Positions 29,335-64,000 of a stretch of DNA of 64,000 nt are shown here, in pieces; the stretch's first letter is position 1; each line of letters starts with the position of its first letter. Below the pieces are notes generated by a model. It had not been told where the DNA came from. It made no database searches and worked only from the letters and a program-made list of their open reading frames with translations. Where the stretch lies: assembly GCA_964016885.1 (NCBI GenBank), contig OZ024757.1, positions 2,790,001 to 2,854,000 on the forward strand. The letters are read 5' to 3'. This DNA comes from Eledone cirrhosa. Its lineage: Eukaryota. Made by a program: the position numbers and the translations under genes.

Positions 29335-29652
29335 TAGCGTCCGATAGAGGGCGTTGTAGTAGTGGCTAGAACGTCCGATAGATGGCGTTGTTGTAGTGGT
29401 TAGAACGTCCGATAGAGGCCGTTGTAGTAGTTGTTGTAGCGTTCGATAGAGGGCGTTGATGTAGGTGTTGTAGCGTCCGTTAGAGGGCGTTATAGTAGCG
29501 GTTAGAACGTCCGATAGAGGGCGGTGTAGTAGTGGTTAGGACGTCCAATAGCGGGCGTTGAGTTAGTTGTAGCGTCCGATAGAGGGCGTTGTAATAGTTG
29601 TTATAGTGGGCGGTGTAGTAGTGGTTACAACGGCCGATAGAGGACGTTGCAG
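29335..29652. repeat. GC-rich ~32-34-bp minisatellite, 10 units, with CTCF-like core
   Basis: Unit about TAGAACGTCCGATAGAGGGCGTTGTAGTAGTGGT. Confidence 0.9.
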
Positions 29653-29754
29653 TCGATCTCATCTCTAGCTCCCAACTCCACCGACGTCCATTTTCTTTTC
29701 CTTTTATACTTTCAAGATAATATAAAGGATCACAATTCTAATACGGGGACACTC

Positions 29755-30178
29755 TCCCCCCTCTCTCTCTCTCTCTCACTCTCTCTCTCTCTCTCTTTCC
29801 CCCATTCTCTTTCTCTCTCATTCTCTCTCTTTCTTTCTCTCTCTCTTTCTTTCTCTCTCTCTTTCTCTCTCTTTCTTTCTCTCTTTCTTTCTCTTTCTCT
29901 CTCATTCTCTCTCTTTTTCTCTTTCTCTGTTTCTCACGCTCCTGCTTATTCTTTCTTTCTCTTTCACCCTCTCTTTCTTTCTCTCATGCTCCCTCTTATT
30001 AACTCGTGCTCTTTCTCTTTCTCTCTCTCTCACGCCCCCTCTTATACTCTCTTTATAATTCTCTCTCATTCTCTCTCTCTCCTTCTCTCCCCCTTTCTCT
30101 CACCCCACCCCCTTACTCTCTCACGCCCCTCTCACTCTCCTCCTCTCTCACTCCCCCTCTCCTTCCCCACTTTCTCTC
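29755..30178. repeat. (CT)n/CTTT polypyrimidine low-complexity tract
   Basis: Direct reading. Confidence 0.95.
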
Positions 30179-30236: not shown

Positions 30237-30488
30237 TCTTCTTCTTCTTTTTCTTCTTCTTCTTGAGAGTGTCATGGCGGCAGAGACCTCAAACCCTCCT
30301 TCCAGCAGGTCCTGTCAGAAGCAACCATCGCCAACTGATCCGGCTGGATCCCCAAGTGAGACCAGCTAAGCTCATGGATGTTATCCAACCAACTTATTCA
30401 GTGTCTACTCCTGGGTCTTTCTGTCCAGCGATTCTTTCCTAAGATATTTAAACCACATGTCTATAGTATCAGAGCTGTGATCTCTCAA
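30237..30488 (-). mobile_element. RTE-clade LINE 3' end (Rex3/Expander-like C-terminus) with (GAA)n tail
   Basis: The minus strand translates RPRSRH*ISWLDNIHELSWSHLGIQPDQLAMVASDRTCWKEGLRSLPP*, matching the RTE C-terminal pattern RPRGRP..RW.D.I....W..LGI......VA.DR..W......LPP. (TTC)n at 30237-30264. Confidence 0.8.
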
Positions 30489-33400
30489 TCCAGAGATACT
30501 TTCCTGAGACATTCTAACCACATGTCTGTAGTATCAGAGCTGTGATCTCTCAATCCAGAGATACTTTCCTGAGACATTCTAACCACATATCTGTAGTATC
30601 AGAGCTGTGATCTCTCAATCCAGAGATACTTTCCTGAGAAATTCTAACCACATATCTGTAGTACCAGAGCTGTGATCTCTCAATCCAGAGTTTCTTTCAT
30701 GATACATTCTAACCACATATCTGTAGTATCAGAGCTGTGATCTCTCAATCCAGAGATTCTTTCATGAGACATTCTAACGACATATCTGTAGTATCAGAGC
30801 TGTGATCTCTCAATCCAGAGATTCTTTCATGAGACATTCTAACCACATGTCTGTAGTATCAGAGCTGTAATCTCCCAATCCAGCGATTCTTACCTCAGAG
30901 ATTCTAACCACATGTCTATAGAATCATAGCTGTGATCTCGCAATTCAGAGATCCTTTCCTCAGACATTCTAACCAGATGTCTGTAGTGTCAGAGCTGTGA
31001 TATCTCAAACCAGAGATTCTTTCCAGAGACATTCTAACCACATGTCTGTAGTATCAGAGCTGTGATCTCTCATTTCAGAGATTCATTCCCAAGACATTCT
31101 AACCACATGTCTATAGTATCAGAGCTGTGATCTCTCAATTCAGAGATTCTTTCCTGAGACATTCTAACCAAATGACAATAGTATCAGAGCTGTGATCTCT
31201 CAATTCAGAGATTCTTTACAGAGACACACTAACCACATGTCTGTAGTATCAGAGCTGTGATATCTCAATGCAGAGATTCTTTCCTGACACATTCTAACCA
31301 CATGTCTATAGTATCAGAGCTGTGATCTCTCAATTCAGAGATTCTTTCCTGAGGCATTCTAACCACATGTCTAAAGTATCAGAGCTGTGATCTCTCAATT
31401 CAGAGAATCTTTCCTGAGACATTCAAACCACATGTCTATAGTATCAGAGCTGTGCTCTCTCAATTCAGAGATTCTTTCCTGAGGCATTCTAACCACATGT
31501 CTAAAGTATCAGAGCTGTGATCTCTCAATTCACAGATTCTTTCCTGAGGCATTCAAACCACATGTCTGTAGTATCAGAGCTGTGATCTCTCAATTCAGAG
31601 ATTCTTTCCTGAGACATTCTAGCCACATGTCTATAGTATCAGAGCTGTGATCTCTCAATTCAGAGATTATTTCCTGAGACATTCTAACTACATGTCTGTA
31701 GTATCAGAGCTGTGATCGCCCAATCCAGCGATTCTTACCTCAGAGATTCTAACCACATGTCTATAGAATCATAGCTGTGATCTTGCAATTCAGAGATCCT
31801 TTCCTCAGACATTCTAACCACATGTCTGTAGTGTCAGAGCTGTGATATCTCAAACCAGAGATTCTTTCCAGAGACATTCTAACCACATGTCTGTAGTATC
31901 AGAGCAGTGATCTCTCATTTCAGAGATTCATTCCCAAGACATTCTAACCACATGTCTATAGTATCAGAGATGTGATCTCTCAATTCAGAGATTCTTTCCT
32001 GAGACATTCTAACCAAATGACAATAGTATCAGAGCTGTGATCTCTCAATTCAGAGATTCTTTCCAGTGACACACTAACCACATGTCTGTAGTATCAGAGC
32101 TGTGATCTCTCAATTCAGAGTTTCTTTCCTGAGACATTCTAAGCACATGTCTATAGTATCAGAGCTGTGATCTCTCAATTCAGAAATTCTTTCCTGAGAC
32201 ATTCTAACCACATATCGGTAGTATCAGAGCTGTGATCTCTCAATTCAGAGATTATTTCCTGAGACATTCTAACTACATGTCTGTAGTATCAGAGCTGTGA
32301 TCTCTCAATTTAGAGATTCTTTCCTGAGACATTCTAAACACATATCTGTAGTATCAGAGCTGTGAACTCTCAATTCAGAGTTTCTTTCCTGAGACATTCT
32401 AAGCACATGTCTATAGTATCAGAGCTGTGATCTCTCAATTCAGAAATTCTTTCCTGAGATATTCTAACCACATATCGGTAGTATCAGAGCTGTGATCTCT
32501 CAATGCAGAGATTCTTTCCTGACACATTCTAACCACATGTCTATAGTATCAGAGCTGTGATCTCTCAATTCAGAGATTCTTTCCTGAGGCATTCTAACCA
32601 CATGTCTAAAGTATCAGAGCTGTGATCTCTCAATTCAGAGAATCTTTCCTGAGACATTCAAACCACATGTCTATAGTATCAGAGCTGTGCTCTCTCAATT
32701 CAGAGATTCTTTCCTGAGGCATTCTAACCACATGTCTAAAGTATCAGAGCTGTGATCTCTCAATTCACAGATTCTTTCCTGAGGCATTCAAACCACATGT
32801 CTGTAGTATCAGAGGTGTGATCTCTCAATTCAAAGATTCTTTCCTGAGACATTCTAACTACATGTCTGTAGTATCAGAGCTGTAATCTCCCAATTCATAG
32901 ATTCTTTCCAGAAACATTCTAACCACATGACCATAGTATCAGAGCTGTGATCTCTCAATTCAGAGATTCTTTCCAGAGACATTCTAACCACATGTCTATA
33001 GTATCAGAGCTGTGATCTCTCCATTCAGAGATTCTTTCCTGAGACATTCTAACCACATGTCTGTAGTATCAGAGCTGTGATCTCTCAATTTAGAGATTCT
33101 TTCCTGAGACATTCTAACCACATGGCTGTAGTATCAGAGCTGTGATCTCTCAATTCAAAGATTCATTCCTGAGATAATTCTAACCCCATATCTATAGTAT
33201 CAGAGCTGTGATCTCTCAATTCAGAAATTCTTTCCTGAGACATTCTAACCACATATCGGTAGTATCAGAGCTGTGATCTCTCAATGCAGAGATTCTTTCC
33301 TGACACATTCTAACCACATGTCTATAGTATCAGAGCTGTGATCTCTCAAATCAGAGATTCTTTCCTCAGGCATTCTAACCACATGTCTAAAGTATCAGAG

Positions 33401-36400
33401 CTGTGATCTCTCAATTCAGAGATTCTTTCCTGAGACATTCAAACCACATGTCTATAGTATCAGAGCTGTGATCTCTCAATTCAGAGATTCTTTGCTGAGG
33501 CATTCTAACCACATGTCTAAAGTATCACAGCTGTGATCTCTCAATTCGGAGATTCTTTCCTGAAACATTCAAACCACATGTCTGTAGTATCAGAGGTGTG
33601 ATCTCTCAATTCAAAGATTCTTTCCTGAGACATTCTAACTACATGTCTGTAGTATCAGAGCTGTAATCTCTCAATTCATAGATTCTTTCCAGAGACATTC
33701 TAACCACATGACCATAGTATCAGAGCTGTGCTCTCTCAATTCAGAGATTCTTTCCTGAGACATTCTAAACACATGTCTGTAGTATCAGAGCTGTGATCTC
33801 TCAATTCAGAAATTCTATCCTGAGATATTCTAACCACATATCGGTAGTATCAGAGCTGTGATCTCTCAATGCAGAGATTCTTTCCTGAGACATTCTAACC
33901 ACATGTCTATAGTATCAGAACTGTTTTCTCTCAATTCAGAGATTCTTTCCTGAGACATGCTAACCACATGTCTAAAGTATCAGAGCTGTGATCTCTCAAT
34001 TCAGAGATTCTTTCCTGAGACATTCAAATCACATGTCTGTAGTATCAGAGGTGTGATCTCTCAATTCAAAGATTATTTCCAGAGACATTCTAACTACATG
34101 TCTGTAGTATCAGAGCTGTGATCTCTCAATTCAGAGATTCTTTCCAGAGACATTCTAACCAAATGTCTATAGTATCAGAGATGTGATCTCCCCATTCAGA
34201 GATTCTTTCCTGAGACATTCTAACCACATGTCTATAGTGTCAGAGCTGTGATCTCTCAATTCAGAGATTCTTTCATGAGACATTCTAATCACATGGCTGT
34301 AGTATCGGAGCTGTGATCTCTCAATTCAGAGACTCTTTCCTGAGGCATTCTAACCACATGTCTGTAGTATCAGAGCTGTGATCTCTCAATTCAGAGATTC
34401 TTTCCTGAGACATTCTAGCCACATGTCTATAGTATCAGAGCTGTGATCTCTCAATTCAGAGATTCTTTCCTGAGACATTCTAACCACATGGCTGTAGTAT
34501 CAGAGCTGTGATCTCTCAATTCAAAGATTCTTTCCTGAGATAATTCTAACCATATATCTATAGTATCAGAGCTGTGATCTCTCAATTCAAAGATTCTTTC
34601 CAGAGATATTCTTACCACATGTCTGTAGTATCAGAGCTGTGATCTCTCAATTCAGAGATTCTTTCCTGAGACATTCTAACCACATGTCTGTAGTATCAGA
34701 GCTGTGATCTCTCAATTCAGAGATTCTTTCCTGAGACATTCTAGCCACATGTCTATAGTATCAGATCTGTGATCTCTCAATTCAGAGATTCTTTCCTGAG
34801 TGATTCTAACCACATGTCAGTAGTATCAGAGGTGTGATCTCTCAATTCAGAGATTCTTTCCTGAGACATTCTAACCAGATGTCTGTAGTATCAGAGCTGT
34901 GATCTCTCAATTCAGAGATCATTTCCTGAAACATTCTAACTACATGTCTGTAGTATCAGAGCTGTGATCCCTCAATTTAGAGTTTCTTTCCTGAGACATT
35001 CTAAGCACATGTCTATAGTATCAGAGCTGTGATCTCTCAATTCAGAAATTCTTTCCTGAGATATTCTAACCACATATCGGTAGTATCAGAGCTGTGATCT
35101 CTCAATGCAGAGATTCTTTCCTGAGACATTCTAACAACATGTCTATAGTATCAGACCTGTTTTCTCTCAATTCAGAGATTCTTTCCTGAGACATTCTAAC
35201 CACATGTCTAAAGTATCAGAGCTGTGATCTCTCAATTCAGAGATTCTTTCCTGAGACATTCAAACCACATGTCTGTAGTATCAGAGGTGTGATCTCTCAA
35301 TTCAAAGATTCTTTCCTGAGACATTCTAACTACATGTCTGTAGTATCAGAGCTGTGATATCTCAATTCAGAGATTCTTTCCTGACACATTCTAACCACAT
35401 GGCTGTAGTATCAGAGCTGTGATCTCTCAATTCAAAGATTCTTTCCTGATATAATTCTAAACACATATCTATAGTATCAGAGCTGTGATCTCTCAATTCA
35501 AAGATTCTTTCCAGAGATATTCTTACCACATGTTTGTAGTATCAGAGCTGTGATCTCTCAATTCAGAGATTCTTTCCTGAGACATTCTAACCAGATGTCT
35601 ATAGTTTCAGAGCTTTGATATCTCAATTCAGAGATTCTTTCCTGAGACATTCTAACCACATGTCTATCGTATCAGAGCTGTGATCTCTCAATTCAGAGAT
35701 TCTTTCCTGAGACATTCTAACCACATGGCTGTAGTATCAGAGCTGTGATCTCTCAATTCAAAGATTCTTTCCTGAGATAATTCTAACCACATATCTATAG
35801 TATCAGAGCTGTGACCTCTCAATTCAAAGATTCTTTCCAGAGATATTCTTACCACATGTCTGTAGTATCAGAACTGTGATCTCTCAATTCAGAGATTCTT
35901 TCCTGAGACATTCTAACCACATGTCTGTAGTATCAGAGCTGTGATCTCTCAATTCAGAGATTCTTTCCTGAGACATTCTAGCCACATGTCTATAGTATCA
36001 GAGCTGTGATCTCTCAATTCAGAGATTCTTTCCTGAGTGATTCTAACCACATGTCAGTAGTATCAGAGGTGTGATCTCTCAATTCAGAGATTCTTTCCTG
36101 AGACATTCTAACCAGATGTCTGTAGTATCAGAGCTGTGATCTCTCAATTCAGAGATTCTTTCCTGAGACATTCTAAACACATGACAATAGTAACAGAGCT
36201 GTGATCTCTCAATTCAGAGATTCCTTCCAGAGACACACTAACCACATGTCTGTATTATCAGAGCTGTGATCTCTCAATTCAGAGTTTCTTTCCTGAGACA
36301 TTCTAAGCACATGTCTATAGTATCAGAGCTGTGATCTCTCAATTCAGAGATTATTTCCTGAGACATTCTAACTACATGTCTGTAGTATCAGAGCTGTGAT

Positions 36401-39400
36401 CTCTCAATTTAGAGATTCTTTTCTGAGACATTCTAACCACATATCTGTAGCATCAGAGCTGTGAACTCTCAATTCAGAGTTTCTTTCGTGAGACATTCTA
36501 AGCACATGTCTATAGTATCAGAGCTGTGATCTCTCAATTCAGAAATTCTTTCCTGAGACATTCTAACCACATATCGGTAGTATCAGAGCTGTGATCTCTC
36601 AATGCAGAGACTCTTTCCTGACACATTCTAACCACATGGCTGTAGTATCAGAGCTGTGATCTCTCAATTCAAAGATTCATTCCTGAGATAATTCTAACCC
36701 CATATCTATAGTATCAGAGCTGTGATCTCTCAATTTAGAAATTCTTTCCTGAGACATTCTAACCACATATCGGTAGTATCAGAGCTGTGATCTCTCAATG
36801 CAGAGATTCTTTCCTGACACATTCTAACCACATGTCTATAGTATCAGAGCTGTGATCTCTCAAATCAGAGATTCTTTCCTGAGGCATTCTAACCACATGT
36901 CTAAAGTATCAGAGCTGTGATCTCTCAATTCAGAGATTCTTTCCTGAGACATTCAAACCACATGTCTATAGTATCAGAGCTGTGATCTCTCAATTCAGAG
37001 ATTCTTTCCTGAGGCATTCTAACCACATGTCTAAAGTATCACAGCTGTGATCTCTCAATTCAGAGATTCTTTCCTGAAACATTCAAACCACATGTCTGTA
37101 GTATCAGAGGTGTGATCTCTCAATTGAAAGATTCTTTCCTGAGACATTCTAACTACACATCTGTAGTATCAGAGCTGTAATCTCTCAATTCATAGATTCT
37201 TTCCAGAGACATTCTAACCCCATGACCATAGTATCAGAGCTGTGATCTCTCAATTCAGAGATTCTTTCCAGAGACATTCTAACCACATGTCTATAGTATC
37301 AGCGCTGTGATCTCTCCATTCAGAGATTCTTTCCTGAGACATTCTAACCACATGTCTGTAGTATCAGAGCTGTGATCTCTCAATTCAGAGATTCTTTCCT
37401 GAGACATTCTAACCACATGGCTGTAGTATCAGAGCTGTGATCTCTCAATTCAAAGATTCTTTCCTGAGATAATTCTAACCACATATCTATAGTATCAGAG
37501 CTGTGATCTCTCAATTCAAAGATTCTTTCCAGAGATATTCTTACCACATGTCAGTAGTATCAGAGCTGTGATCTCTCAATTCAGAGATTCTTTCCTGAGA
37601 CATTCTAACCACATGTCTGTAGTATCAGAGCTGTGATCTCTCAATTCAGAGATTCTTTCCTGAGACATTCTAGCCACATGTCTATAGTATCAGAGCTGTG
37701 ATCTCTCAATTCAGAGATTCTTTCCTGAGTGATTCTAACCACATGTCAGTAGTATCAGAGGTGTGATCTCTCAATTCAGAGATTCTTTCCTGAGACATTC
37801 TAACCAGATGTCTGTAGTATCAGAGCTGTGATCTCTCAATTCAGAGATTCTTTCATGAGACATTCTAAACACATGACAATAGTAACAGAGCTGTGATCTT
37901 TCAATTCAGAGATTCCTTCCAGAGACACACTAACCACATGTTTGTAGTATCAGAGCTGTGATCTCTCAATTCAGAGTTTCTTTGCTGAGACATTCTAAGC
38001 ACATGTCTATAGTATCAGAGCTGAGATCTCTCAATTCAGAGATTATTTCCTGAGACATTCTAACTACATGTCTGTAGTATCAGAGCTGTGATCTCTCAAT
38101 TTAGAGATTCTTTTCTGAGACATTCTAACCACATATCTGTAGTATCAGAGCTGTGAACTCTCAATTCAGAGTTTCTTTCCTGAGACATTCTAGTCACATG
38201 TCTATAGTATCAGAGCTGTGATCTCTCAATTCAGAGATTATTTCCTGAGATATTCTAACTACATGTCTGTAGTATCTGAGCTGTGATCTCTCAATTTAGA
38301 GATTCTTTCCTGAGACATTCTAACAACATATCTGTAGTATCGGAGCTGTGATCTCTCAATTCAGAGTTTCCTTCCTGAGACATTCTAAGCACATGTCTAT
38401 AGCATCAGAGCTGTGATCTCTAAATTCAAAAATTCTATCCTGAGATATTCTAACCACATATCGGTAGTATCAGAGCTGTGATCTCTCAATTCAGAGATTC
38501 TTTCCTGAGACATTCAAACCACATGTCTGTAGTATCAGAGGTGTGATCTCTCAATTCAAAGATTATTTCCTGAGACATTCTAACCTAATGACAATAGTAT
38601 CAGAGCTGTGATCTCTCAATTCAGAGATTCTTTCCAGAGACATTCTAACCACATGACCATAGTATCAGAGCTGTGATCTCTCAATTCAGAGATTCTTTCC
38701 AGAGACATTCTAACCCAATGTCTATAGTATCAGAGATGTGATCTCCCCATTCAGAGATTCTTTCCTGAGACATTCTAACCACATGTCTGTAGTATCAGAG
38801 CTGTGATCTCTCAATTCAGAGATTCTTTGCTGAGACATTCTAACCACATATCTATAGTGTCAGAGCTGTGATCTCTCAATTCAGAGATTCTTTCCTGAGA
38901 CATTCTAATCACATGGCTGTAGTATCAGAGCTGTGATCTCTCAATTCAGAGACTCTTTCCTGAGGCATTCTAACCACATGTCTAAAGTGTCAGAGCTGTG
39001 ATCTCTCAATTCAGAGATTCTTTCCTGAGACATTCAAACCACATGTCTGTAGTATCAGAGCTGTGATCTCTCAATTCAAAGATTCTTTCCTGAGATAATT
39101 CTAACCACATATCTATAGTATCAGAGCTGTGATCTCTCAATTCAAAGACTCTTTCCAGAGATATTCTTACCACATGTCTGTAGTATCAGAGCTGTGATCT
39201 CTCAATTCAGAGATTCTTTCCTGAGACATTCTAACCACATGTCTGTAGTATCAGAGCTGTGATCTCTCAATTCAGAGATTCTTTCCTGAGACATTCTAGC
39301 CACATGTCTATAGTATCAGAACTGTGATCCCTCAATTCAGAGATTCTTTCCTGAGTGATTCTAACCACATGTCAGTAGTATCAGAACTGTGATCTCTCAA

Positions 39401-42400
39401 TTCAGAGATTCTTTCCTGAAACATTCTAACTACATGTCTGTAGTATCAGAGCTGTGATCCCTCAATTTAGAGATTCTTTCCTGAGACATTCTAACCACAT
39501 ATCTGTAGTATCAGAGCTGTGATCTCTCAATTCAGAGTTTCTTTCCTGAGACATTCTAAGCACATGGCTGTAGTATCAGTGCTGTGATCTCTCAATTCAG
39601 AAATTCTTTCCTGAAATATTCTAACCACATATCGGTAGTATCAGAGCTGTGATCTCTCAATGCAGAGATTCTTTCCTGAGACATTCTAACCACATGTCTA
39701 AAGTATCAGAGCTGTGATCTCTCAATTCAGAGATTCTTTCCTGAGACATTCAAACCACATGTCTGTAGTATCAGAGGTGTGATCTCTCAATTCAAAGATT
39801 CTTTCCTGAGACATTCTAACTACATGTCTGTAGTATCAGAGCTGTGATCTGTCAATTCAGAGATTCTTTCCAGAGACATTCTAACCACATGACCATAGTA
39901 TCAGAGCTGTGATCTCTCAATTCAGAGATTCTTTCCAGAGACATTCTAACCACATGTCTACAGTATCAGAGATGTGATATCTCAATTCAGAGATTCTTTC
40001 CTGACACATTCTAACCACACGTCTATACTATCAGAGCTGTGATCTCTCAATTCAAAGATTCTTTCCTGATATAATTCTAACCACATATCTATAGTATCAG
40101 AGCTGTGATCTCTCAATTCAAAGATTCTTTCGAGAGATATTCTTACCACATGTTTGTAGTATCAGAGCTGTGATCTCTCAATTCAGAGATTCTTTCATGA
40201 GACATTCTAACCACATGTCTGTAGTATCAGAGCTGTGATCTCTCAATTCAGAGATTCTTTCCAGAGACATTCTAGCCACATGTCTAAAGTATCAGAGCTG
40301 TGATCTCTCAATTCAGAGATTCTTTCCTGAGTGATTCTAACCACATGTCAGTAGTATCAGAGGTGTGATCTCTCAATTCAGAGATTCTTTCCTGAGACAT
40401 TCTAACCACATGTCTACAGTATCAGAGAAGTGATCTCTCCATTCAGAGATTCTTTCGTGAGACATTCTAACCACATTTCTGTAGTATCTGAGCTGTGATC
40501 TCTCAATTAAGAGATTCTTTCCTGAGACATTCTAACCACATGGCTGTAGTATCAGAGCTGTGATCTCTCAATTCAAAGATTCTTTCCTAATATAATTCTA
40601 ACCACATATCTATAGTATCAGAGCTGTGATCTCTCAATTCAAAGATTCTTTCGAGAGATATTCTTACCACATGTTTGTAGTATCAGAGCTGTGATCTCTC
40701 AATTCAGAGATTCTTTCCTGAGACATTCTAACCACATGTCTGTAGTATCAGAGCTGTGATCTCTCAATTCAGGGATTCTTTCCAGAGACATTCAAGCCAC
40801 ATGTCTATAGTATCAGAGCTGTGATCTCTCAATTCAGAGATTCTTTCCTGAGTGATTCTATCCACATGTCTGTAGTATCAGAGGTGTGATTTCTCAATTC
40901 AGAGATTCTTTCCTGAGACATTCTAACCAGATGGCTATAGTTTCAGAGCTTTGATCTCTCAATTCAGAGATTCTTTCCTGAGACATTCTAACCACATGTC
41001 TATAGCATCAGAACTGTGATCTCTCAATTCAGAGATTCTTTCCTGAGACATTCTAACCACATGGATGTAGTATCAGAGCTGTGATCTCTCAATTCAAAGA
41101 TTCATTCCTGAGATAATTCTAACCCCATATCTATAGTATCAGAGCTGTGATCTCTCAATTCAGAAATTCTTTCCTGAGACATTCAAACCACATGTCTGTA
41201 GTATCAGAGGTGTGATCTCTCAATTCAAAGATTCTTTCCTGAGACATTCTAACTACATGTCTGTAGTATCAGAGCTGTAATCTCTCAATTCATAGATTCC
41301 TTGCAGAGACATTCTAACCCCATGACCATAGTATCAGAGCTGTGATCTCTCAATTCAGAGGTTCTTTCCAGAGACGTTCTAACCACATGTCTATAGTATC
41401 AGAGCTGTGATCTCTCCATTGAGAGATTCTTTCCTGAGACATTCTAACCACATGGCTGTAGTATCAGAGCTGTGATCTCTCAATTCAAAGATTCTTTCCT
41501 GAGATAATTCTAACCACATATCTATAGTATCAGAGCTGTGATCTCTCAATTCAAAGACTCTTTCCAGAGATATTCTTACCACATGTCTGTAGTATCAGAG
41601 CTGTGATCTCTCAATTCAGAGATTCTTTCCTGAGACATTCTAACCACATGTCTGTAGTATCAGAGCTGTGATCTCTCAATTCAGAGATTCTTTCCTGAGA
41701 CATTCTAGCCACATGTCTATAGTATCAGAACTGTGATCTCTCAATTCAGAGATTCTTTCCTGAGACATTCTAACCACATGTCTGTAGTATCAGAGCTGTG
41801 ATCTCTCAATGCAGAGATTCTTTCCTGAGACATTCTAACCACATGTCTATAGTATCAGAACTGTTTTCTCTCAATTCAGAGATTCTTTCCTGAGACATGC
41901 TAACCACATGTCTAAAGTATCACAGCTGTGATCTCTCAATTCAGAGATTCTTTCCTGAAACATTCAAACCACATGTCTGTAGTATCAGAGATGTGATCTC
42001 TCAATTCAAAGATTATTTCCAGAGACATTCTAACTACATGTCTGTAGTATCAGAGCTGTGATCTCTCAATTCAGAGATTCTTTCCAGAGACATTCTAACC
42101 AAATGTCTATAGTATCAGAGATGTGATCTCCCCATTCAGAGATTCTTTCCTGAGACATTCTAACCACATGTCTATAGTGTCAGAGCTGTGATCTCTCAAT
42201 TCAGAGATTCTTTCATGAGACATTCTAATCACATGGCTGTAGTATCGGAGCTGTGATCTCTCAATTCAGAGACTCTTTCCTGAGGCATTCTAACCACATG
42301 TCTGTAGTATCAGAGCTGTGATCTCTCAATTCAGAGATTCTTTCCTGAGACATTCTAGCCACATGTCTATAGTATCAGAGCTGTGATCTCTCAATTCAGA

Positions 42401-51400: not shown

Positions 51401-54400
51401 CTAACCAGATGTCTGTAGTATCAGAGCTGTGATCTCTCAATTCAGAGATTCTTTCATGAGACATTCTAAACACATGACAATAGTAACAGAGCTGTGATCT
51501 TTCAATTCAGAGATTCCTTCCAGAGACACACTAACCACATGTTTGTAGTATCAGAGCTGTGATCTCTCAATTCAGAGTTTCTTTGCTGAGACATTCTAAG
51601 CACATGTCTATAGTATCAGAGCTGAGATCTCTCAATTCAGAGATTATTTCCTGAGACATTCTAACTACATGTCTGTAGTATCAGAGCTGTGATCTCTCAA
51701 TTTAGAGATTCTTTTCTGAGACATTCTAACCACATATCTGTAGTATCAGAGCTGTGAACTCTCAATTCAGAGTTTCTTTCCTGAGACATTCTAGTCACAT
51801 GTCTATAGTATCAGAGCTGTGATCTCTCAATTCAGAGATTATTTCCTGAGATATTCTAACTACATGTCTGTAGTATCTGAGCTGTGATCTCTCAATTTAG
51901 AGATTCTTTCCTGAGACATTCTAACAACATATCTGTAGTATCGGAGCTGTGATCTCTCAATTCAGAGTTTCCTTCCTGAGACATTCTAAGCACATGTCTA
52001 TAGCATCAGAGCTGTGATCTCTAAATTCAAAAATTCTATCCTGAGATATTCTAACCACATATCGGTAGTATCAGAGCTGTGATCTCTCAATTCAGAGATT
52101 CTTTCCTGAGACATTCAAACCACATGTCTGTAGTATCAGAGGTGTGATCTCTCAATTCAAAGATTATTTCCTGAGACATTCTAACCTAATGACAATAGTA
52201 TCAGAGCTGTGATCTCTCAATTCAGAGATTCTTTCCAGAGACATTCTAACCACATGACCATAGTATCAGAGCTGTGATCTCTCAATTCAGAGATTCTTTC
52301 CAGAGACATTCTAACCCAATGTCTATAGTATCAGAGATGTGATCTCCCCATTCAGAGATTCTTTCCTGAGACATTCTAACCACATGTCTGTAGTATCAGA
52401 GCTGTGATCTCTCAATTCAGAGATTCTTTGCTGAGACATTCTAACCACATATCTATAGTGTCAGAGCTGTGATCTCTCAATTCAGAGATTCTTTCCTGAG
52501 ACATTCTAATCACATGGCTGTAGTATCAGAGCTGTGATCTCTCAATTCAGAGACTCTTTCCTGAGGCATTCTAACCACATGTCTAAAGTGTCAGAGCTGT
52601 GATCTCTCAATTCAGAGATTCTTTCCTGAGACATTCAAACCACATGTCTGTAGTATCAGAGCTGTGATCTCTCAATTCAAAGATTCTTTCCTGAGATAAT
52701 TCTAACCACATATCTATAGTATCAGAGCTGTGATCTCTCAATTCAAAGACTCTTTCCAGAGATATTCTTACCACATGTCTGTAGTATCAGAGCTGTGATC
52801 TCTCAATTCAGAGATTCTTTCCTGAGACATTCTAACCACATGTCTGTAGTATCAGAGCTGTGATCTCTCAATTCAGAGATTCTTTCCTGAGACATTCTAG
52901 CCACATGTCTATAGTATCAGATCTGTGATCTCTCAATTCAGAGATTCTTTCCTGAGTGATTCTAACCACATGTCAGTAGTATCAGAGGTGTGATCTCTCA
53001 ATTCAGAGATTCTTTCCTGAGACATTCTAACCAGATGTCTGTAGTATCAGAGCTGTGATCTCTCAATTCAGAGATCATTTCCTGAAACATTCTAACTACA
53101 TGTCTGTAGTATCAGAGCTGTGATCCCTCAATTTAGAGTTTCTTTCCTGAGACATTCTAAGCACATGTCTATAGTATCAGAGCTGTGATCTCTCAATTCA
53201 GAAATTCTTTCCTGAGATATTCTAACCACATATCGGTAGTATCAGAGCTGTGATCTCTCAATGCAGAGATTCTTTCCTGAGACATTCTAACAACATGTCT
53301 ATAGTATCAGACCTGTTTTCTCTCAATTCAGAGATTCTTTCCTGAGACATTCTAACCACATGTCTAAAGTATCAGAGCTGTGATCTCTCAATTCAGAGAT
53401 TCTTTCCTGAGACATTCAAACCACATGTCTGTAGTATCAGAGGTGTGATCTCTCAATTCAAAGATTCTTTCCTGAGACATTCTAACTACATGTCTGTAGT
53501 ATCAGAGCTGTGATATCTCAATTCAGAGATTCTTTCCTGACACATTCTAACCACATGGCTGTAGTATCAGAGCTGTGATCTCTCAATTCAAAGATTCTTT
53601 CCTGATATAATTCTAAACACATATCTATAGTATCAGAGCTGTGATCTCTCAATTCAAAGATTCTTTCCAGAGATATTCTTACCACATGTTTGTAGTATCA
53701 GAGCTGTGATCTCTCAATTCAGAGATTCTTTCCTGAGACATTCTAACCAGATGTCTATAGTTTCAGAGCTTTGATATCTCAATTCAGAGATTCTTTCCTG
53801 AGACATTCTAACCACATGTCTATCGTATCAGAGCTGTGATCTCTCAATTCAGAGATTCTTTCCTGAGACATTCTAACCACATGGCTGTAGTATCAGAGCT
53901 GTGATCTCTCAATTCAAAGATTCTTTCCTGAGATAATTCTAACCACATATCTATAGTATCAGAGCTGTGACCTCTCAATTCAAAGATTCTTTCCAGAGAT
54001 ATTCTTACCACATGTCTGTAGTATCAGAACTGTGATCTCTCAATTCAGAGATTCTTTCCTGAGACATTCTAACCACATGTCTGTAGTATCAGAGCTGTGA
54101 TCTCTCAATTCAGAGATTCTTTCCTGAGACATTCTAGCCACATGTCTATAGTATCAGAGCTGTGATCTCTCAATTCAGAGATTCTTTCCTGAGTGATTCT
54201 AACCACATGTCAGTAGTATCAGAGGTGTGATCTCTCAATTCAGAGATTCTTTCCTGAGACATTCTAACCAGATGTCTGTAGTATCAGAGCTGTGATCTCT
54301 CAATTCAGAGATTCTTTCCTGAGACATTCTAAACACATGACAATAGTAACAGAGCTGTGATCTCTCAATTCAGAGATTCCTTCCAGAGACACACTAACCA

Positions 54401-57400
54401 CATGTCTGTATTATCAGAGCTGTGATCTCTCAATTCAGAGTTTCTTTCCTGAGACATTCTAAGCACATGTCTATAGTATCAGAGCTGTGATCTCTCAATT
54501 CAGAGATTATTTCCTGAGACATTCTAACTACATGTCTGTAGTATCAGAGCTGTGATCTCTCAATTTAGAGATTCTTTTCTGAGACATTCTAACCACATAT
54601 CTGTAGCATCAGAGCTGTGAACTCTCAATTCAGAGTTTCTTTCGTGAGACATTCTAAGCACATGTCTATAGTATCAGAGCTGTGATCTCTCAATTCAGAA
54701 ATTCTTTCCTGAGACATTCTAACCACATATCGGTAGTATCAGAGCTGTGATCTCTCAATGCAGAGATTCTTTCCTGACACATTCTAACCACATGGCTGTA
54801 GTATCAGAGCTGTGATCTCTCAATTCAAAGATTCATTCCTGAGATAATTCTAACCCCATATCTATAGTATCAGAGCTGTGATCTCTCAATTCAGAAATTC
54901 TTTCCTGAGACATTCTAACCACATATCGGTAGTATCAGAGCTGTGATCTCTCAATGCAGAGATTCTTTCCTGACACATTCTAACCACATGTCTATAGTAT
55001 CAGAGCTGTGATCTCTCAAATCAGAGATTCTTTCCTGAGGCATTCTAACCACATGTCTAAAGTATCAGAGCTGTGATCTCTCAATTCAGAGATTCTTTCC
55101 TGAGACATTCAAACCACATGTCTATAGTATCAGAGCTGTGATCTCTCAATTCAGAGATTCTTTCCTGAGGCATTCTAACCACATGTCTAAAGTATCACAG
55201 CTGTGATCTCTCAATTCAGAGATTCTTTCCTGAAACATTCAAACCACATGTCTGTAGTATCAGAGGTGTGATCTCTCAATTGAAAGATTCTTTCCTGAGA
55301 CATTCTAACTACACATCTGTAGTATCAGAGCTGTAATCTCTCAATTCATAGATTCTTTCCAGAGACATTCTAACCCCATGACCATAGTATCAGAGCTGTG
55401 ATCTCTCAATTCAGAGATTCTTTCCAGAGACATTCTAACCACATGTCTATAGTATCAGCGCTGTGATCTCTCCATTCAGAGATTCTTTCCTGAGACATTC
55501 TAACCACATGTCTGTAGTATCAGAGCTGTGATCTCTCAATTCAGAGATTCTTTCCTGAGACATTCTAACCACATGGCTGTAGTATCAGAGCTGTGATCTC
55601 TCAATTCAAAGATTCTTTCCTGAGATAATTCTAACCACATATCTATAGTATCAGAGCTGTGATCTCTCAATTCAAAGATTCTTTCCAGAGATATTCTTAC
55701 CACATGTCAGTAGTATCAGAGCTGTGATCTCTCAATTCAGAGATTCTTTCCTGAGACATTCTAACCACATGTCTGTAGTATCAGAGCTGTGATCTCTCAA
55801 TTCAGAGATTCTTTCCTGAGACATTCTAGCCACATGTCTATAGTATCAGAGCTGTGATCTCTCAATTCAGAGATTCTTTCCTGAGTGATTCTAACCACAT
55901 GTCAGTAGTATCAGAGGTGTGATCTCTCAATTCAGAGATTCTTTCCTGAGACATTCTAACCAGATGTCTGTAGTATCAGAGCTGTGATCTCTCAATTCAG
56001 AGATTCTTTCATGAGACATTCTAAACACATGACAATAGTAACAGAGCTGTGATCTTTCAATTCAGAGATTCCTTCCAGAGACACACTAACCACATGTTTG
56101 TAGTATCAGAGCTGTGATCTCTCAATTCAGAGTTTCTTTGCTGAGACATTCTAAGCACATGTCTATAGTATCAGAGCTGAGATCTCTCAATTCAGAGATT
56201 ATTTCCTGAGACATTCTAACTACATGTCTGTAGTATCAGAGCTGTGATCTCTCAATTTAGAGATTCTTTTCTGAGACATTCTAACCACATATCTGTAGTA
56301 TCAGAGCTGTGAACTCTCAATTCAGAGTTTCTTTCCTGAGACATTCTAGTCACATGTCTATAGTATCAGAGCTGTGATCTCTCAATTCAGAGATTATTTC
56401 CTGAGATATTCTAACTACATGTCTGTAGTATCTGAGCTGTGATCTCTCAATTTAGAGATTCTTTCCTGAGACATTCTAACAACATATCTGTAGTATCGGA
56501 GCTGTGATCTCTCAATTCAGAGTTTCCTTCCTGAGACATTCTAAGCACATGTCTATAGCATCAGAGCTGTGATCTCTAAATTCAAAAATTCTATCCTGAG
56601 ATATTCTAACCACATATCGGTAGTATCAGAGCTGTGATCTCTCAATTCAGAGATTCTTTCCTGAGACATTCAAACCACATGTCTGTAGTATCAGAGGTGT
56701 GATCTCTCAATTCAAAGATTATTTCCTGAGACATTCTAACCTAATGACAATAGTATCAGAGCTGTGATCTCTCAATTCAGAGATTCTTTCCAGAGACATT
56801 CTAACCACATGACCATAGTATCAGAGCTGTGATCTCTCAATTCAGAGATTCTTTCCAGAGACATTCTAACCCAATGTCTATAGTATCAGAGATGTGATCT
56901 CCCCATTCAGAGATTCTTTCCTGAGACATTCTAACCACATGTCTGTAGTATCAGAGCTGTGATCTCTCAATTCAGAGATTCTTTGCTGAGACATTCTAAC
57001 CACATATCTATAGTGTCAGAGCTGTGATCTCTCAATTCAGAGATTCTTTCCTGAGACATTCTAATCACATGGCTGTAGTATCAGAGCTGTGATCTCTCAA
57101 TTCAGAGACTCTTTCCTGAGGCATTCTAACCACATGTCTAAAGTGTCAGAGCTGTGATCTCTCAATTCAGAGATTCTTTCCTGAGACATTCAAACCACAT
57201 GTCTGTAGTATCAGAGCTGTGATCTCTCAATTCAAAGATTCTTTCCTGAGATAATTCTAACCACATATCTATAGTATCAGAGCTGTGATCTCTCAATTCA
57301 AAGACTCTTTCCAGAGATATTCTTACCACATGTCTGTAGTATCAGAGCTGTGATCTCTCAATTCAGAGATTCTTTCCTGAGACATTCTAACCACATGTCT

Positions 57401-60400
57401 GTAGTATCAGAGCTGTGATCTCTCAATTCAGAGATTCTTTCCTGAGACATTCTAGCCACATGTCTATAGTATCAGAACTGTGATCCCTCAATTCAGAGAT
57501 TCTTTCCTGAGTGATTCTAACCACATGTCAGTAGTATCAGAGCTGTGATCTCTCAATTCAGAGATTCTTTCCTGAAACATTCTAACTACATGTCTGTAGT
57601 ATCAGAGCTGTGATCCCTCAATTTAGAGATTCTTTCCTGAGACATTCTAACCACATATCTGTAGTATCAGAGCTGTGATCTCTCAATTCAGAGTTTCTTT
57701 CCTGAGACATTCTAAGCACATGGCTGTAGTATCAGTGCTGTGATCTCTCAATTCAGAAATTCTTTCCTGAAATATTCTAACCACATATCGGTAGTATCAG
57801 AGCTGTGATCTCTCAATGCAGAGATTCTTTCCTGAGACATTCTAACCACATGTCTAAAGTATCAGAGCTGTGATCTCTCAATTCAGAGATTCTTTCCTGA
57901 GACATTCAAACCACATGTCTGTAGTATCAGAGGTGTGATCTCTCAATTCAAAGATTCTTTCCTGAGACATTCTAACTACATGTCTGTAGTATCAGAGCTG
58001 TGATCTGTCAATTCAGAGATTCTTTCCAGAGACATTCTAACCACATGACCATAGTATCAGAGCTGTGATCTCTCAATTCAGAGATTCTTTCCAGAGACAT
58101 TCTAACCACATGTCTACAGTATCAGAGATGTGATCTCTCCATTCAGAGATTCTTTCCTGAGACATTCTAACCACATGTCTGTAGTATCAGAGCTGTGATA
58201 TCTCAATTCAGAGATTCTTTCCTGACACATTCTAACCACACGTCTATACTATCAGAGCTGTGATCTCTCAATTCAAAGATTCTTTCCTGATATAATTCTA
58301 ACCACATATCTATAGTATCAGAGCTGTGATCTCTCAATTCAAAGATTCTTTCGAGAGATATTCTTACCACATGTTTGTAGTATCAGAGCTGTGATCTCTC
58401 AATTCAGAGATTCTTTCATGAGACATTCTAACCACATGTCTGTAGTATCAGAGCTGTGATCTCTCAATTCAGAGATTCTTTCCAGAGACATTCTAGCCAC
58501 ATGTCTATAGTATCAGAGCTGTGATTTCTCAATTCAGAGATTCTTTCCTGAGTGATTCTAACCACATGTCTGTAGTATCAGAGGTGTGATTTCTCAATTC
58601 AGAGATTCTTTCCTGAGACATTCTAACCAGATGTCTATAGTTTCAGAGCTTTGATCTCTCAATTCAGAGATTCTTTCCTGAGACATTCTAACCACATGTC
58701 TATAGTATCAGAGCTGTGATCTCTCAATTCAGAGATTCTTTCCTGAGACATTCTAACCACATGGCTGTAGTATCAGGGCTGTGATCTCTCAATTCAAAGA
58801 TTCTTTCCTGAGATAATTCTAACCACATATCTATAGTATCAGAGCTGTGATCTCTCAATTCAAAGATTCTTTCCAGAGATATTCTTACCACATGTCTGTA
58901 GTATCAGAGCTGTGATCTCTCAATTCAGAGATTCTTTCCTGAGACATTCTAGCCACATGTCTAAAGTATCAGAGCTGTGATCTCTCAATTCAGAGATTCT
59001 TTCCTGAGTGATTCTAACCACATGTCAGTAGTATCAGAGGTGTGATCTCTCAATTCAGAGATTCTTTCCTGAGACATTCTAACCACATGTCTACAGTATC
59101 AGAGAAGTGATCTCTCCATTCAGAGATTCTTTCGTGAGACATTCTAACCACATTTCTGTAGTATCTGAGCTGTGATCTCTCAATTAAGAGATTCTTTCCT
59201 GAGACATTCTAACCACATGGCTGTAGTATCAGAGCTGTGATCTCTCAATTCAAAGATTCTTTCCTAATATAATTCTAACCACATATCTATAGTATCAGAG
59301 CTGTGATCTCTCAATTCAAAGATTCTTTCGAGAGATATTCTTACCACATGTTTGTAGTATCAGAGCTGTGATCTCTCAATTCAGAGATTCTTTCCTGAGA
59401 CATTCTAACCACATGTCTGTAGTATCAGAGCTGTGATCTCTCAATTCAGGGATTCTTTCCAGAGACATTCAAGCCACATGTCTATAGTATCAGAGCTGTG
59501 ATCTCTCAATTCAGAGATTCTTTCCTGAGTGATTCTATCCACATGTCTGTAGTATCAGAGGTGTGATTTCTCAATTCAGAGATTCTTTCCTGAGACATTC
59601 TAACCAGATGGCTATAGTTTCAGAGCTTTGATCTCTCAATTCAGAGATTCTTTCCTGAGACATTCTAACCACATGTCTATAGCATCAGAGCTGTGATCTC
59701 TCAATTCAGAGATTCTTTCCTGAGACATTCTAACCACATGGATGTAGTATCAGAGCTGTGATCTCTCAATTCAAAGATTCATTCCTGAGATAATTCTAAC
59801 CCCATATCTATAGTATCAGAGCTGTGATCTCTCAATTCAGAAATTCTTTCCTGAGACATTCTAACCACATATCGGTAGTATCAGAGCTGTGATCTCTCAA
59901 TGCAGAGATTCTTTCCTGACACATTCTAACCACATGTCTATAGTATCAGAGCTGTGATCTCTCAAATCAGAGATTCTTTCCTGAGGCATTCTAACCACAT
60001 GTCTAAAGTGTCAGAGCTGTGATCTCTCAATTCAGAGATTCTTTCCTGAGACATTCAAACCACATGTCTGTAGTATCAGAGGTGTGATCTCTCAATTCAA
60101 AGATTCTTTCCTGAGACATTCTAACTACATGTCTGTAGTATCAGAGCTGTAATCTCTCAATTCATAGATTCCTTGCAGAGACATTCTAACCCCATGACCA
60201 TAGTATCAGAGCTGTGATCTCTCAATTCAGAGGTTCTTTCCAGAGACGTTCTAACCACATGTCTATAGTATCAGAGCTGTGATCTCTCCATTGAGAGATT
60301 CTTTCCTGAGACATTCTAACCACATGGCTGTAGTATCAGAGCTGTGATCTCTCAATTCAAAGATTCTTTCCTGAGATAATTCTAACCACATATCTATAGT

Positions 60401-63400
60401 ATCAGAGCTGTGATCTCTCAATTCAAAGACTCTTTCCAGAGATATTCTTACCACATGTCTGTAGTATCAGAGCTGTGATCTCTCAATTCAGAGATTCTTT
60501 CCTGAGACATTCTAACCACATGTCTGTAGTATCAGAGCTGTGATCTCTCAATTCAGAGATTCTTTCCTGAGACATTCTAGCCACATGTCTATAGTATCAG
60601 AACTGTGATCTCTCAATTCAGAGATTCTTTCCTGAAACATTCTAACTACATGTCTGTAGTATCAGAGCTGTGATCCCTCAATTTAGAGATTCTTTCCTGA
60701 GACATTCTAACCACATATCTGTAGTATCAGAGCTGTGATCTCTCAATTCAGAGTTTCTTTCCTGAGACATTCTAAGCACATGGCTGTAGTATCAGAGCTG
60801 TGATCTCTCAATTCAGAAATTCTTTCCTGAAATATTCTAACCACATATCGGTAGTATCAGAGCTGTGATCTCTCAATGCAGAGATTCTTTCCTGAGACAT
60901 TCTAACCACATGTCTAAAGTATCAGAGCTGTGATCTCTCAATTCAGAGATTCTTTCCTGAGACATTCAAACCACATGTCTGTAGTATCAGAGGTGTGATC
61001 TCTCAATTCAAAGATTCTTTCCTGAGACATTCTAACTACATGTCTGTAGTATCAGAGCTGTGATCTATCAATTCAGAGATTCTTTCCAGAGACATTCTAA
61101 CCACATGACCATAGTATCAGAGCTGTGATCTCTAAATTCAGAGATTCTTTCCAGAGACATTCTAACCACATGTCTACAGTATCAGAGATGTGATCTCTCC
61201 ATTCAGAGATTCTTTCCTGAGACATTCTAACCACATGTCTGTAGTATCAGAGCTGTGATATCTCAATTCAGAGATTCTTTCCTGACACATTCTAACCACA
61301 CGTCTATACTATCAGAGCTGTGATCTCTCAATTCAAAGATTCTTTCCTGATATAATTCTAACCACATATCTATAGTATCACAGCTGTGATCTCTCAATTC
61401 AAAGATTCTTTCGAGAGATATTCTTACCACATGTTTGTAGTATCAGAGCTGTGATCTCTCAATTCAGAGATTCTTTCCTGAGACATTCTAACCACATGTC
61501 TGTAGTATCAGAGCTGTGATCTCTCAATTCAGAGATTCTTTCCAGAGACATTCTAGCCACATGTCTATAGTATCAGAGCTGTGATTTCTCAATTCAGAGA
61601 TTCTTTCCTGAGTGATTCTAACCACATGTCTGTAGTATCAGAGGTGTGATTTCTCAATTCAGAGATTCTTTCCTGAGACATTCTAACCAGATGTCTATAG
61701 TTTCAGAGCTTTGATCTCTCAATTCAGAGATTCTTTCCTGAGACATTCTAACCACATGTCTATAGTATCAGAGCTGTGATCTCTCAATTCAGAGATTCTT
61801 TCCTGAGACATTCTAACCACATGGCTGTAGTATCAGGGCTGTGATCTCTCAATTCAAAGATTCTTTCCTGAGATAATTCTAACCACATATCTATAGTATC
61901 AGAGCTTTGATCTCTCAATTCAAAGATTCTTTCCAGAGATATTCTTACCACATGTCTGTAGTATCAGAGCTGTGATCTCTCAATTCAGAGATTCTTTCCT
62001 GAGACATTCTAGCCACATGTCTAAAGTATCAGAGCTGTGATCTCTCAATTCAGAGATTCTTTCCTGAGTGATTCTAACCACATGTCAGTAGTATCAGAGG
62101 TGTGATCTCTCAATTCAGAGATTCTTTCCTGAGACATTCTAACCACATGTCTACAGTATCAGAGATGTGATCTCTCCATTCAGAGATTCTTTCGTGAGAC
62201 ATTCTAACCACATTTCTGTAGTATCTGAGCTGTGATCTCTCAATTAAGAGATTCTTTCCTGAGACATTCTAACCACATGGCTGTAGTATCAGAGCTGTGA
62301 TCTCTCAATTCAAAGATTCTTTCCTAGAATAATTCTAACCACATATCTCTAGTATCAGAGCTGTGATCTCTCAATTCAAAGATTCTTTCGAGAGATATTC
62401 TTACCACATGTTTGTAGTATCAGAGCTGTGATCTCTCAATTCAGAGATTCTTTCCTGAGACATTCTAACCACATGTCTGTAGTATCAGAGCTGTGATCTC
62501 TCAATTCAGAGATTCTTTCCAGAGACATTCTAGCCACATGTCTATAGTATCAGAGCTGTGATCTCTCAATTCAGAGATTCTTTCCTGAGTGATTCTATCC
62601 ACATGTCTGTAGTATCAGAGGTGTGATTTCTCAATTCAGAGATTCTTTCCTGAGACATTCTAAGCAGATGTCTATAGTTTCAGAGCTTTGATCTCTCAAT
62701 TCAGAGATTCTTTCCTGAGACATTCTAACCACATGTCTATAGCATCAGAGCTGTGATCTCTCAATTCAGAGATTCTTTCCTGAGACATTCTAACCACATG
62801 GCTGTAGTATCAGAGCTGTGATCTCTCAATTCAAAGATTCATTCCTGAGATAATTCTAACCCCATATCTATAGTATCAGAGCTGTGATCTCTCAATTCAG
62901 AAATTCTTTCCTGAGACATTCTAACCACATATCGGTAGTATCAGAGCTGTGATCTCTCAATGCAGAGATTCTTTCCTGACACATTCTAACCACATGTCTA
63001 TAGTATCAGAGCTGTGATCTCTCAAATCAGAGATTCTTTCCTGAGGCATTCTAACCACATGTCTAAAGTGTCAGAGCTGTGATCTCTCAATTCAGAGATT
63101 CTTTCCTGAGACATTCAAACCACATGTCTGTAGTATCAGAGGTGTGATCTCTCAATTCAAAGATTCTTTCCTGAGACATTCTAACTACATGTCTGTAGTA
63201 TCAGAGCTGTAATCTCTCAATTCATAGATTCTTTGCAGAGACATTCTAACCCCATGACCATAGTATCAGAGCTGTGATCTCTCAATTCAGAGGTTCTTTC
63301 CAGAGACGTTCTAACCACATGTCTATAGTATCAGAGCTGTGATCTCTCCATTGAGAGATTCTTTCCTGAGACATTCTAACCACATGGCTGTAGTATCAGA

Positions 63401-64000
63401 GCTGTGATCTCTCAATTCAAAGATTCTTTCCTGAGATAATTCTAACCACATATCTATAGTATCAGAGCTGTGATCTCTCAATTCAAAGACTCTTTCCAGA
63501 GATATTCTTACCACATGTCTGTAGTATCAGAGCTGTGATCTCTCAATTCAGAGATTCTTTCCTGAGACATTCTAACCACATGTCTGTAGTATCAGAGCTG
63601 TGATCTCTCAATTCAGAGATTCTTTCCTGAGACATTCTAGCCACATGTCTATAGTATCAGAACTGTGATCTCTCAATTCAGAGATTCTTTCCTGAAACAT
63701 TCTAACTACATGTCTGTAGTATCAGAGCTGTGATCCCTCAATTTAGAGATTCTTTCCTGAGACATTCTAACCACATATCTGTAGTATCAGAGCTGTGATC
63801 TCTCAATTCAGAGTTTCTTTGCTGAGACATTCTAAGCACATGGCTGTAGTATCAGAGCTGTGATCTCTCAATTCAGAAATTCTTTCCTGAAATATTCTAA
63901 CCACATATCGGTAGTATCAGAGCTGTGATCTCTCAATGCAGAGATTCTTTCCTGAGACATTCTAACCACATGTCTAAAGTATCAGAGCTGTGATCTCTCA
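30424..64000. repeat. 65-bp satellite array with higher-order structure (~516 monomers, open at window end)
   Basis: Consensus ATTCTAACCACATGTCTGTAGTATCAGAGCTGTGATCTCTCAATTCAGAGATTCTTTCCTGAGAC; period 65 (66 in the GATAATTC/TATAATTC variants); no interruptions seen. Confidence 0.98.

Follow-up and report, generated by a model that had tools for sequence, protein, structure and literature searches.

The array and its host on C18

The window, the whole 64,000-nucleotide stretch of Eledone cirrhosa DNA analyzed here (G000:C18:2,790,001-2,854,000, in an assembly of 3.0 Gb), contains part of a tandem array of a 65-bp monomer lying inside a decayed copy of a long interspersed nuclear element (LINE) that appears to be RTE/Rex3-like (Table 1). 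The origin of this satellite, and the way it came to lie in other LINE copies of the same genome, are the subject of this report. Tandem Repeats Finder (TRF) called the array at 30426-64000 with a period of 65, 516 copies and 89% matches, and anchor spacings (n=514) were 65 in 476 instances and 66 in 38. On the minus strand the monomer translates as IERSQL*YYRHVVRMSQE and is followed by RPRSRH*ISWLDNIHELSWSHLGIQPDQLAMVASDRTCWKEGLRSLPP* and a (GAA)n tail. A first-pass annotation of this DNA had read the monomer as part of a LINE open reading frame (ORF), which the translation and the identity of the monomer to the LINE majority at 60 of its 65 bases bear out. It had also described a run across a small deletion, here measured as 25 bp, into an RTE C-terminus and a (GAA)n tail, and this is indeed what the edge looks like. 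The first monomer had been placed at 30424, whereas our phasing puts the last whole monomer at 30431-30495. The array had been sized at more than 33 kb; it exceeds this figure and amounts to ca. 563 kb and ca. 8,660 monomers, of which 267 kb were read completely and the remainder was sampled at 11 points.

Table 1. The satellite array and the LINE copy around it (window positions, or C18 coordinates where so marked).
Feature	Position	Strand	Remarks
(GAA)n 3′ tail of host LINE copy	30237..30264	-	other copies carry an equal tail
Decayed 3′ end (ORF end) of RTE/Rex3-like LINE	30265..30430	-	25-bp deletion between 30420 and 30419
Terminal monomer	30431..30495	-	start satellite-like, four private substitutions in 3′ third
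65-bp satellite array, window part	30431..64000	-	515 monomers; extends past window to G000:C18:3,383,852; one 1.7-kb interruption seen
5′-truncated upstream half of host LINE	C18:3,383,853-3,384,141		joins first monomer in frame

The far end of the array, where the annotation had suggested looking for the upstream continuation of the element, continues in frame and collinearly into the 5′ half of the host LINE. Compared with P0001, the best-matching protein, intact and with endonuclease and reverse transcriptase (RT), the far-end half matched residues 876-986 (E 2e-31), the monomer residues 968-987 and the window half residues 1000-1047 (E 4e-8), so that the monomer and both flanks are collinear with the region after the RT domain, as had been anticipated for the monomer and its adjoining fragment. 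Identity to the LINE majority was 87.5% for the 3′ half (255 aligned bases, including most of the last monomer) and 87.3% for the upstream half (338 aligned bases, including the first monomer). The matching target-site duplication (TSD) that had been looked for at the far end was not found: in this host copy, which is ca. 12% decayed, the best match was of 7 bp and far from the boundary. The monomer derives from the C-terminal coding region of the LINE.

Copies of this LINE are dispersed and 5′-truncated and carry a simple-repeat 3′ tail, with 1048 exact single-unit matches. The host copies seen contain the 3′ part only, with a weak match to RVT_1 (E 0.093) in one segment. A 154-residue C-terminal piece of another copy had no match in a Pfam scan and matched 300 longer proteins; among the 120 matches listed, identity to the host-family segment was 44-63%, nearly all had an RT domain, and the named proteins were mostly from fish. 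Three of four relative proteins scanned carried Exo_endo_phos and RVT_1 in one chain. Rex3 and RTE-like elements are described as encoding an endonuclease, an RT and a C-terminal domain, with the stop codon near GAA repeats, the Rex3 signature being (GAA)2 followed by a GATG/GATC tandem tail (PMC6274825). The host LINE resembles the elements described there in domain order and GAA tail but differs by the absence of that signature: no GATG/GATC tail was seen in 27 aligned rows, where tails were GAA-based with or without a short spacer. Its assignment as RTE/Rex3-like is best taken as provisional, based on motifs and protein neighbors rather than on a tree. Among the best 150 copies nearly all carry stops and none has an open frame of more than 472 residues; the family looks dead.

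Arrays of the same anatomy elsewhere in the genome

One exact junction word occurs 14,998 times genome-wide. Loci were sought with two edge patterns, the 3′ pattern consisting of the tandem junction joined to the LINE 3′ continuation and the 5′ pattern being its counterpart at the upstream edge. These gave 62 and 98 loci, respectively, 10 of them in both sets, i.e. ca. 150 loci. From the 62 3′-edge loci, 51 were fetched and 48 analyzed, with exclusion of L102 (a duplicate of L101), L105 (a partial unit) and L155 (mixed periods); the 98 5′-edge loci were assessed mostly from the listing. Arrays at the 48 analyzed loci contained from 2 to more than 70 monomers. An array larger than that of C18 lies at G000:C28:119,699,963-121,006,300, where ca. 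1.3 Mb of a 64-bp deletion variant, with about 8% of monomers of the window type intermixed, starts inside another LINE copy and halts at its 3′ end at a run of N; 2.4 Mb away on C28, an 8.7-kb array of the 64-bp variant fills a different LINE copy. The long head-to-tail arrays of a single monomer by which a satellite is recognized were found on both C18 (563 kb) and C28 (ca. 1.3 Mb). Further arrays, of at least 10-52 kb, were found at C1:2.915-2.949, C1:30.531-30.558, C1:417.444-417.496 and C18:4.146-4.156 Mb. The first 380 Mb of C1 gave 100 plain matches and no match to the 5′-edge pattern, which missed the arrays at 2.9 and 30.5 Mb. Mapping of other loci had been proposed in the first-pass annotation, with many older arrays in unrelated flanks as the outcome that would speak against its reading; many other arrays do exist, and they lie mostly in LINE copies.

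The C18 array is itself heterogeneous. Its window monomers (n=515) differ by 6.6% from the shared satellite consensus, uniformly throughout. In a search for higher-order repeats, the best lags, of 50-87 monomers, gave distances of 0.092-0.096 against medians of 0.114-0.118. Since several variants specific to this array were found at both of its ends, 500 kb apart, it likely grew in place, long ago. The changes CGA to TGA and GGA to AGA had been thought fixed before amplification. Over the 515 window monomers TGA is present in 95.5% and AGA in 73.6%, so that AGA is not fixed even in this array, and the C1 arrays at 2.9 and 30.5 Mb, which belong to a distinct common subfamily, retain CGA in 55-100% of monomers; decay was therefore not fixed family-wide before amplification. 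A 1.7-kb insertion that breaks the array at G000:C18:2,944,500-2,946,200 could help to date it.

The same annotation had taken the unit for a tandemly duplicated piece of this particular copy, the flank for its parent and the site for its birthplace. The LINE coding origin and the containment of the array within one copy stand; the parentage and the birth site are not supported. Duplication and growth of the unit on C18, with descent of all other arrays from there, would agree with the two LINE halves that flank the array, with monomers about as diverged as their host, and with the ancestral T33 allele, present in 43% of C18 monomers compared with 3-4% in other arrays of the C18 type. However, the anatomy is common to ca. 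150 loci, the C28 array is larger, and the edge alleles of the host are scarce in the C18 array (C4, 0.2%; A12, 1-4%; A51 with T55, at most 0.6%). Moreover, older alleles are kept in arrays on C1 and elsewhere, the arrays at C18:4.15 Mb (11.3%) and on C9 (10.5%) are more diverged than that of C18, and of 214 distinct monomers from small arrays no more than 17 were encountered in the 267 kb that were read. We thus consider a C18 parent highly improbable. The array may be an early member of the family, nothing singling it out as parent; it is an old and much enlarged member, and probably neither the sole birthplace nor the donor of the young arrays on C25, a role that was rejected on variant spectra in the part read.

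Young arrays in old and unrelated hosts

A haplotype designated TACAGAC-type was present in 34 of the 48 analyzed loci, with local consensuses 0-2 bases from the shared one. In 33 small arrays of this type (C18 left out), monomers diverged by 2.3% from the shared consensus and the host 3′ flanks by 7.6% from the LINE majority (CpG excluded), monomer divergence being the lower of the two in 31 of the 33 (Wilcoxon p 1e-9). The hosts are no recent family. Their flanks differed pairwise by 14.3%, compared with 15.7% for plain copies, the closest host pair differing by 4.9%, and they formed no clade (19 label changes versus 19.1 in shuffled data, on a tree of 56 tips). The array haplotype was absent from a set of 31 plain copies and present in 3 of 100 listed. 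Young shared monomers thus lie between the two halves of many unrelated LINE copies.

These data bear on the possibility that an array-carrying LINE subfamily retrotransposed, in the way proposed for Helentron repeats, and that some of its copies then expanded. Arrays do lie in 5′-truncated, tailed copies, several of them truncated inside a monomer, and the junction is present in two or three related organisms, so that it may match the activity of the LINE in age. But the hosts lack subfamily structure and near-identical pairs, their flanks are about three times older than the monomers, and arrays cluster on chromosomes where plain copies do not (see below). A transposing carrier would leave hosts that constitute a subfamily with flanks as young as the arrays; what was found instead is young common monomers in older, unrelated residents with chimeric edges, the pattern expected of spread between loci. 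Retrotransposition of a carrier is largely refuted already and very unlikely. Purely local birth would in turn give each array the alleles of its own host; neither it nor a retrotransposed subfamily fits the TACAGAC class.

Edges, junctions and local birth

In 6 of 14 loci that keep the 5′ LINE flank, the first monomer opens with the LINE allele and then turns to satellite alleles, the switch point varying between loci, and the far end of the C18 array shows the same transition. At position 4, by our own count over 98 hosts, 29 combined a C in the host with a T at the junction, and 9 combined a C host with their own C junction. The loss of host alleles at both ends of many loci fits gap repair better than a single crossover, although later homogenization could mimic it.

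Repeated slippage at one and the same microhomology in separate LINE copies, followed by homogenization of the arrays through interlocus conversion, would be another way to the present state. In its favor, 4 of the 9 own-C-junction loci look wholly local, up to 42 of the 1048 single-unit matches contain a microhomology of 6 bp spaced at 65 bp, and the LINE region that gave the 65-bp monomer also spawned tandem units of 49, 83, 93, 99 and 123 bp. By contrast, one junction dominates, at 98 loci, and none of 12 alternative-junction matches (10 of them viewed, 3 of these being plain copies) has the LINE-majority G at position 2 followed by TG; 29 hosts have a junction allele foreign to them; and the segment has no special fold. 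A hairpin had been considered as an explanation and was rejected, as four stretches folded no better than shuffled ones (z -1.1 to +0.8). Repeated birth would, in addition, still require exchange between loci. As a general account we find it unlikely. A minority of loci nevertheless look locally born, and the duplication may have arisen more than once, given the locally allelic loci, the arrays with consensuses of their own and the occurrence of the microhomology.

Chromosomal distribution

Arrays cluster by chromosome. C25, of 29 Mb and 1% of the genome, holds 37 of the 98 5′ edges and 21 of the 62 3′ edges, and C27 holds 19 and 9, respectively, whereas none of 150 plain copies lies on C25-C27. 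In a 400-kb sample of C25 taken at even or round positions, all four copies in which the 65-bp target was complete held an array; another copy, whose target amounted to 39 bp, carried the satellite allele and no 65-bp array, and two fragments devoid of target had no array. In a 70-kb stretch of C25 picked for its matches, arrays were present in each of the five copies, four of which retain 5′ flanks; these four differed by 16-26%. Sharing of variants between C25 arrays rose with proximity (rho 0.24, p 0.0065, n=20). A supposed second large array of the young C25 type was rejected, the region at 2.91-2.98 Mb proving to be five separate small arrays.

The 65-bp junction was also found in contigs of two related organisms, B and C, and thinly in a third, D; since it is shared in this way, the satellite may go back about as far as the activity of the LINE. 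No RNA was listed among its holders. The unique C18 flank, at 88% likeness, was covered by no contig of a relative. At L153:4015-4870 (G000:C25:16.798 Mb), an array of 10 monomers occupies a LINE copy that is itself apparently placed within a short intron, with an exon-like stretch on either side. The downstream stretch is matched, with 19 differences in 220 bases, by a contig of organism B, whose alignment stops short of the LINE tail.

A proposed course of events

The reading that we consider best, and probable, combines birth at a microhomology, homologous spread into LINE fossils and growth in place. The 65-bp unit would have arisen by tandem duplication or slippage at a short microhomology. 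Each fossil holding the segment would then offer a landing pad of 65 bp with about 90% similarity to the satellite. The unit was likely copied into such pads, either through homology-directed repair templated by an ectopic array or through the reintegration of circles. Re-annealing out of register after repair of a break from such an array, or the integration of a satellite circle, would leave the two host halves separated by n additional monomers, in frame. Unequal exchange may then have enlarged a few arrays, that of C18 included, to 0.5-1.3 Mb. As with the initial slippage and the later growth, we infer which repair pathway acted, in which direction monomers were transferred and in what order things happened; the LINE origin, the location within LINE copies, the young common monomers in old hosts and the chromosomal clustering are shown.

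Several observations weigh against this course of events. The exact search patterns favor young arrays, and the satellite consensus from which the low monomer divergence was calculated was built from the very arrays compared with it. Few copies were sampled on C25, and one of the four arrays among them was known beforehand; likeness between arrays was no greater within than between chromosomes (p 0.40). At C18, monomers near the edge diverge by 7.0% and the host by 7.8% (non-CpG), as birth at C18 would likewise predict, and no TSD ties both halves to one insertion. Eight arrays of another, older haplotype have consensuses of their own, all monomers at the four local-looking loci of the own-C-junction class have alleles specific to their host, as would be expected from local birth, and the microhomology recurs in single-unit copies at the frequency given above. 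Finally, no empty orthologous site was seen in the contigs of relatives, which spanned no locus, and insertion was not observed directly.

LINE-derived satellites and spread between loci are each known already. Satellites homologous to LINEs include PROsat (L1 ORF2), Pvc20, chicken HinfI (CR1) and the common cetacean satellite (PMC9659126, PMC6947457); the accounts cited describe, as here, a monomer homologous to a LINE and in some cases to ORF2. The homology they report is to L1 or CR1, whereas here the whole monomer is an in-register ORF segment of an RTE-like element, and arrays are still flanked by both halves of many host copies. In Drosophila, Rsp-like repeats spread into clusters of the 1.688 satellite, for which interlocus conversion or circle reintegration was proposed (PMC7403614). 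There too, as that paper relates, young near-identical repeats appear at many loci of one chromosome within older resident repeats, but the target is another satellite, entered through 4-7-bp microhomology, instead of the parent LINE with 65 bp of homology; the present arrays differ further by their in-frame junctions and by reaching, in some cases, 0.5-1.3 Mb. Maize CRM1TR and CRM4TR are wholly derived from retrotransposons, and their authors suggest that a second locus may stem from conversion with CRM1 sequence (PMC3648361). As far as that account goes, they come from the long terminal repeat (LTR)/untranslated region of an LTR element and occupy few loci with little interlocus movement, in contrast to the LINE coding region, at least 150 loci and extensive sharing seen here. 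Oyster Helentrons carry satellite-like repeats (PMC7492417), and a model of repeats incorporated in transposable elements has been put forward (PMC10048060). The likeness lies in short arrays dispersed in copies of mobile elements, some of which become long satellites; in these sources spread is ascribed to transposition, whereas here the copies that hold the arrays are old, unrelated to one another and look dead. In the literature searched, most of it non-subscription, we came across no account of a satellite that originated in a LINE and fills more than 100 fossils of its parent.

How new satellites reach their loci is a long-standing question, and the usual answers, transposition or circles, lack direct markers. 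In the present case both halves of a datable host copy remain around each array. The ages of array and host, the place of the junction and the distance are thus accessible at more than 100 loci, in arrays ranging from 2 to ca. 20,000 monomers in one genome, and spread by recombination becomes directly testable against spread by transposition. The C18 locus also carries a caution, in that a satellite adjoining its apparent parent element does not prove birth there. Taken a step further, the satellite might be viewed as an enzyme-free homing sequence, with thousands of dead parent copies as its pads, a region-by-region sweep that nearly saturates them, rivalry for the pads with sister units of 64, 93, 99 and 123 bp and rare megabase blow-ups, a view to which we give even chances. 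Were it correct, dead transposon families would predetermine the sites of new satellite blocks.

Sister units and minor observations

Tandem arrays of other periods were encountered in the same LINE. At L308 (G000:C25:16,060,500-16,063,700), a single LINE copy contains a 49-bp array of ca. 60 near-identical copies, whose unit comes from the adjoining segment of the element and has the alleles of that LINE copy; as a candidate for birth in place it surpasses the window array. A 123-bp family from the region of the 65-bp unit was seen at several loci on small chromosomes, at C22:12.558, C24:8.185, C24:8.631 and C26:19.888 Mb, and also at L169 and L213. Arrays of 99 bp with one common junction occupy two unrelated LINE copies, L006:1085-1470 (C15) and L025 (C11), and a 93-bp array was found at L212 (C23). 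A single-unit LINE copy at L271 (G000:C1:195,674,525-195,674,590) carries the full satellite haplotype, possibly as a result of conversion without copy gain or of the collapse of an array. In the window, a 34-bp minisatellite and a CT-rich tract lie directly outside the LINE tail, at 29338-29603 and 29752-30176.
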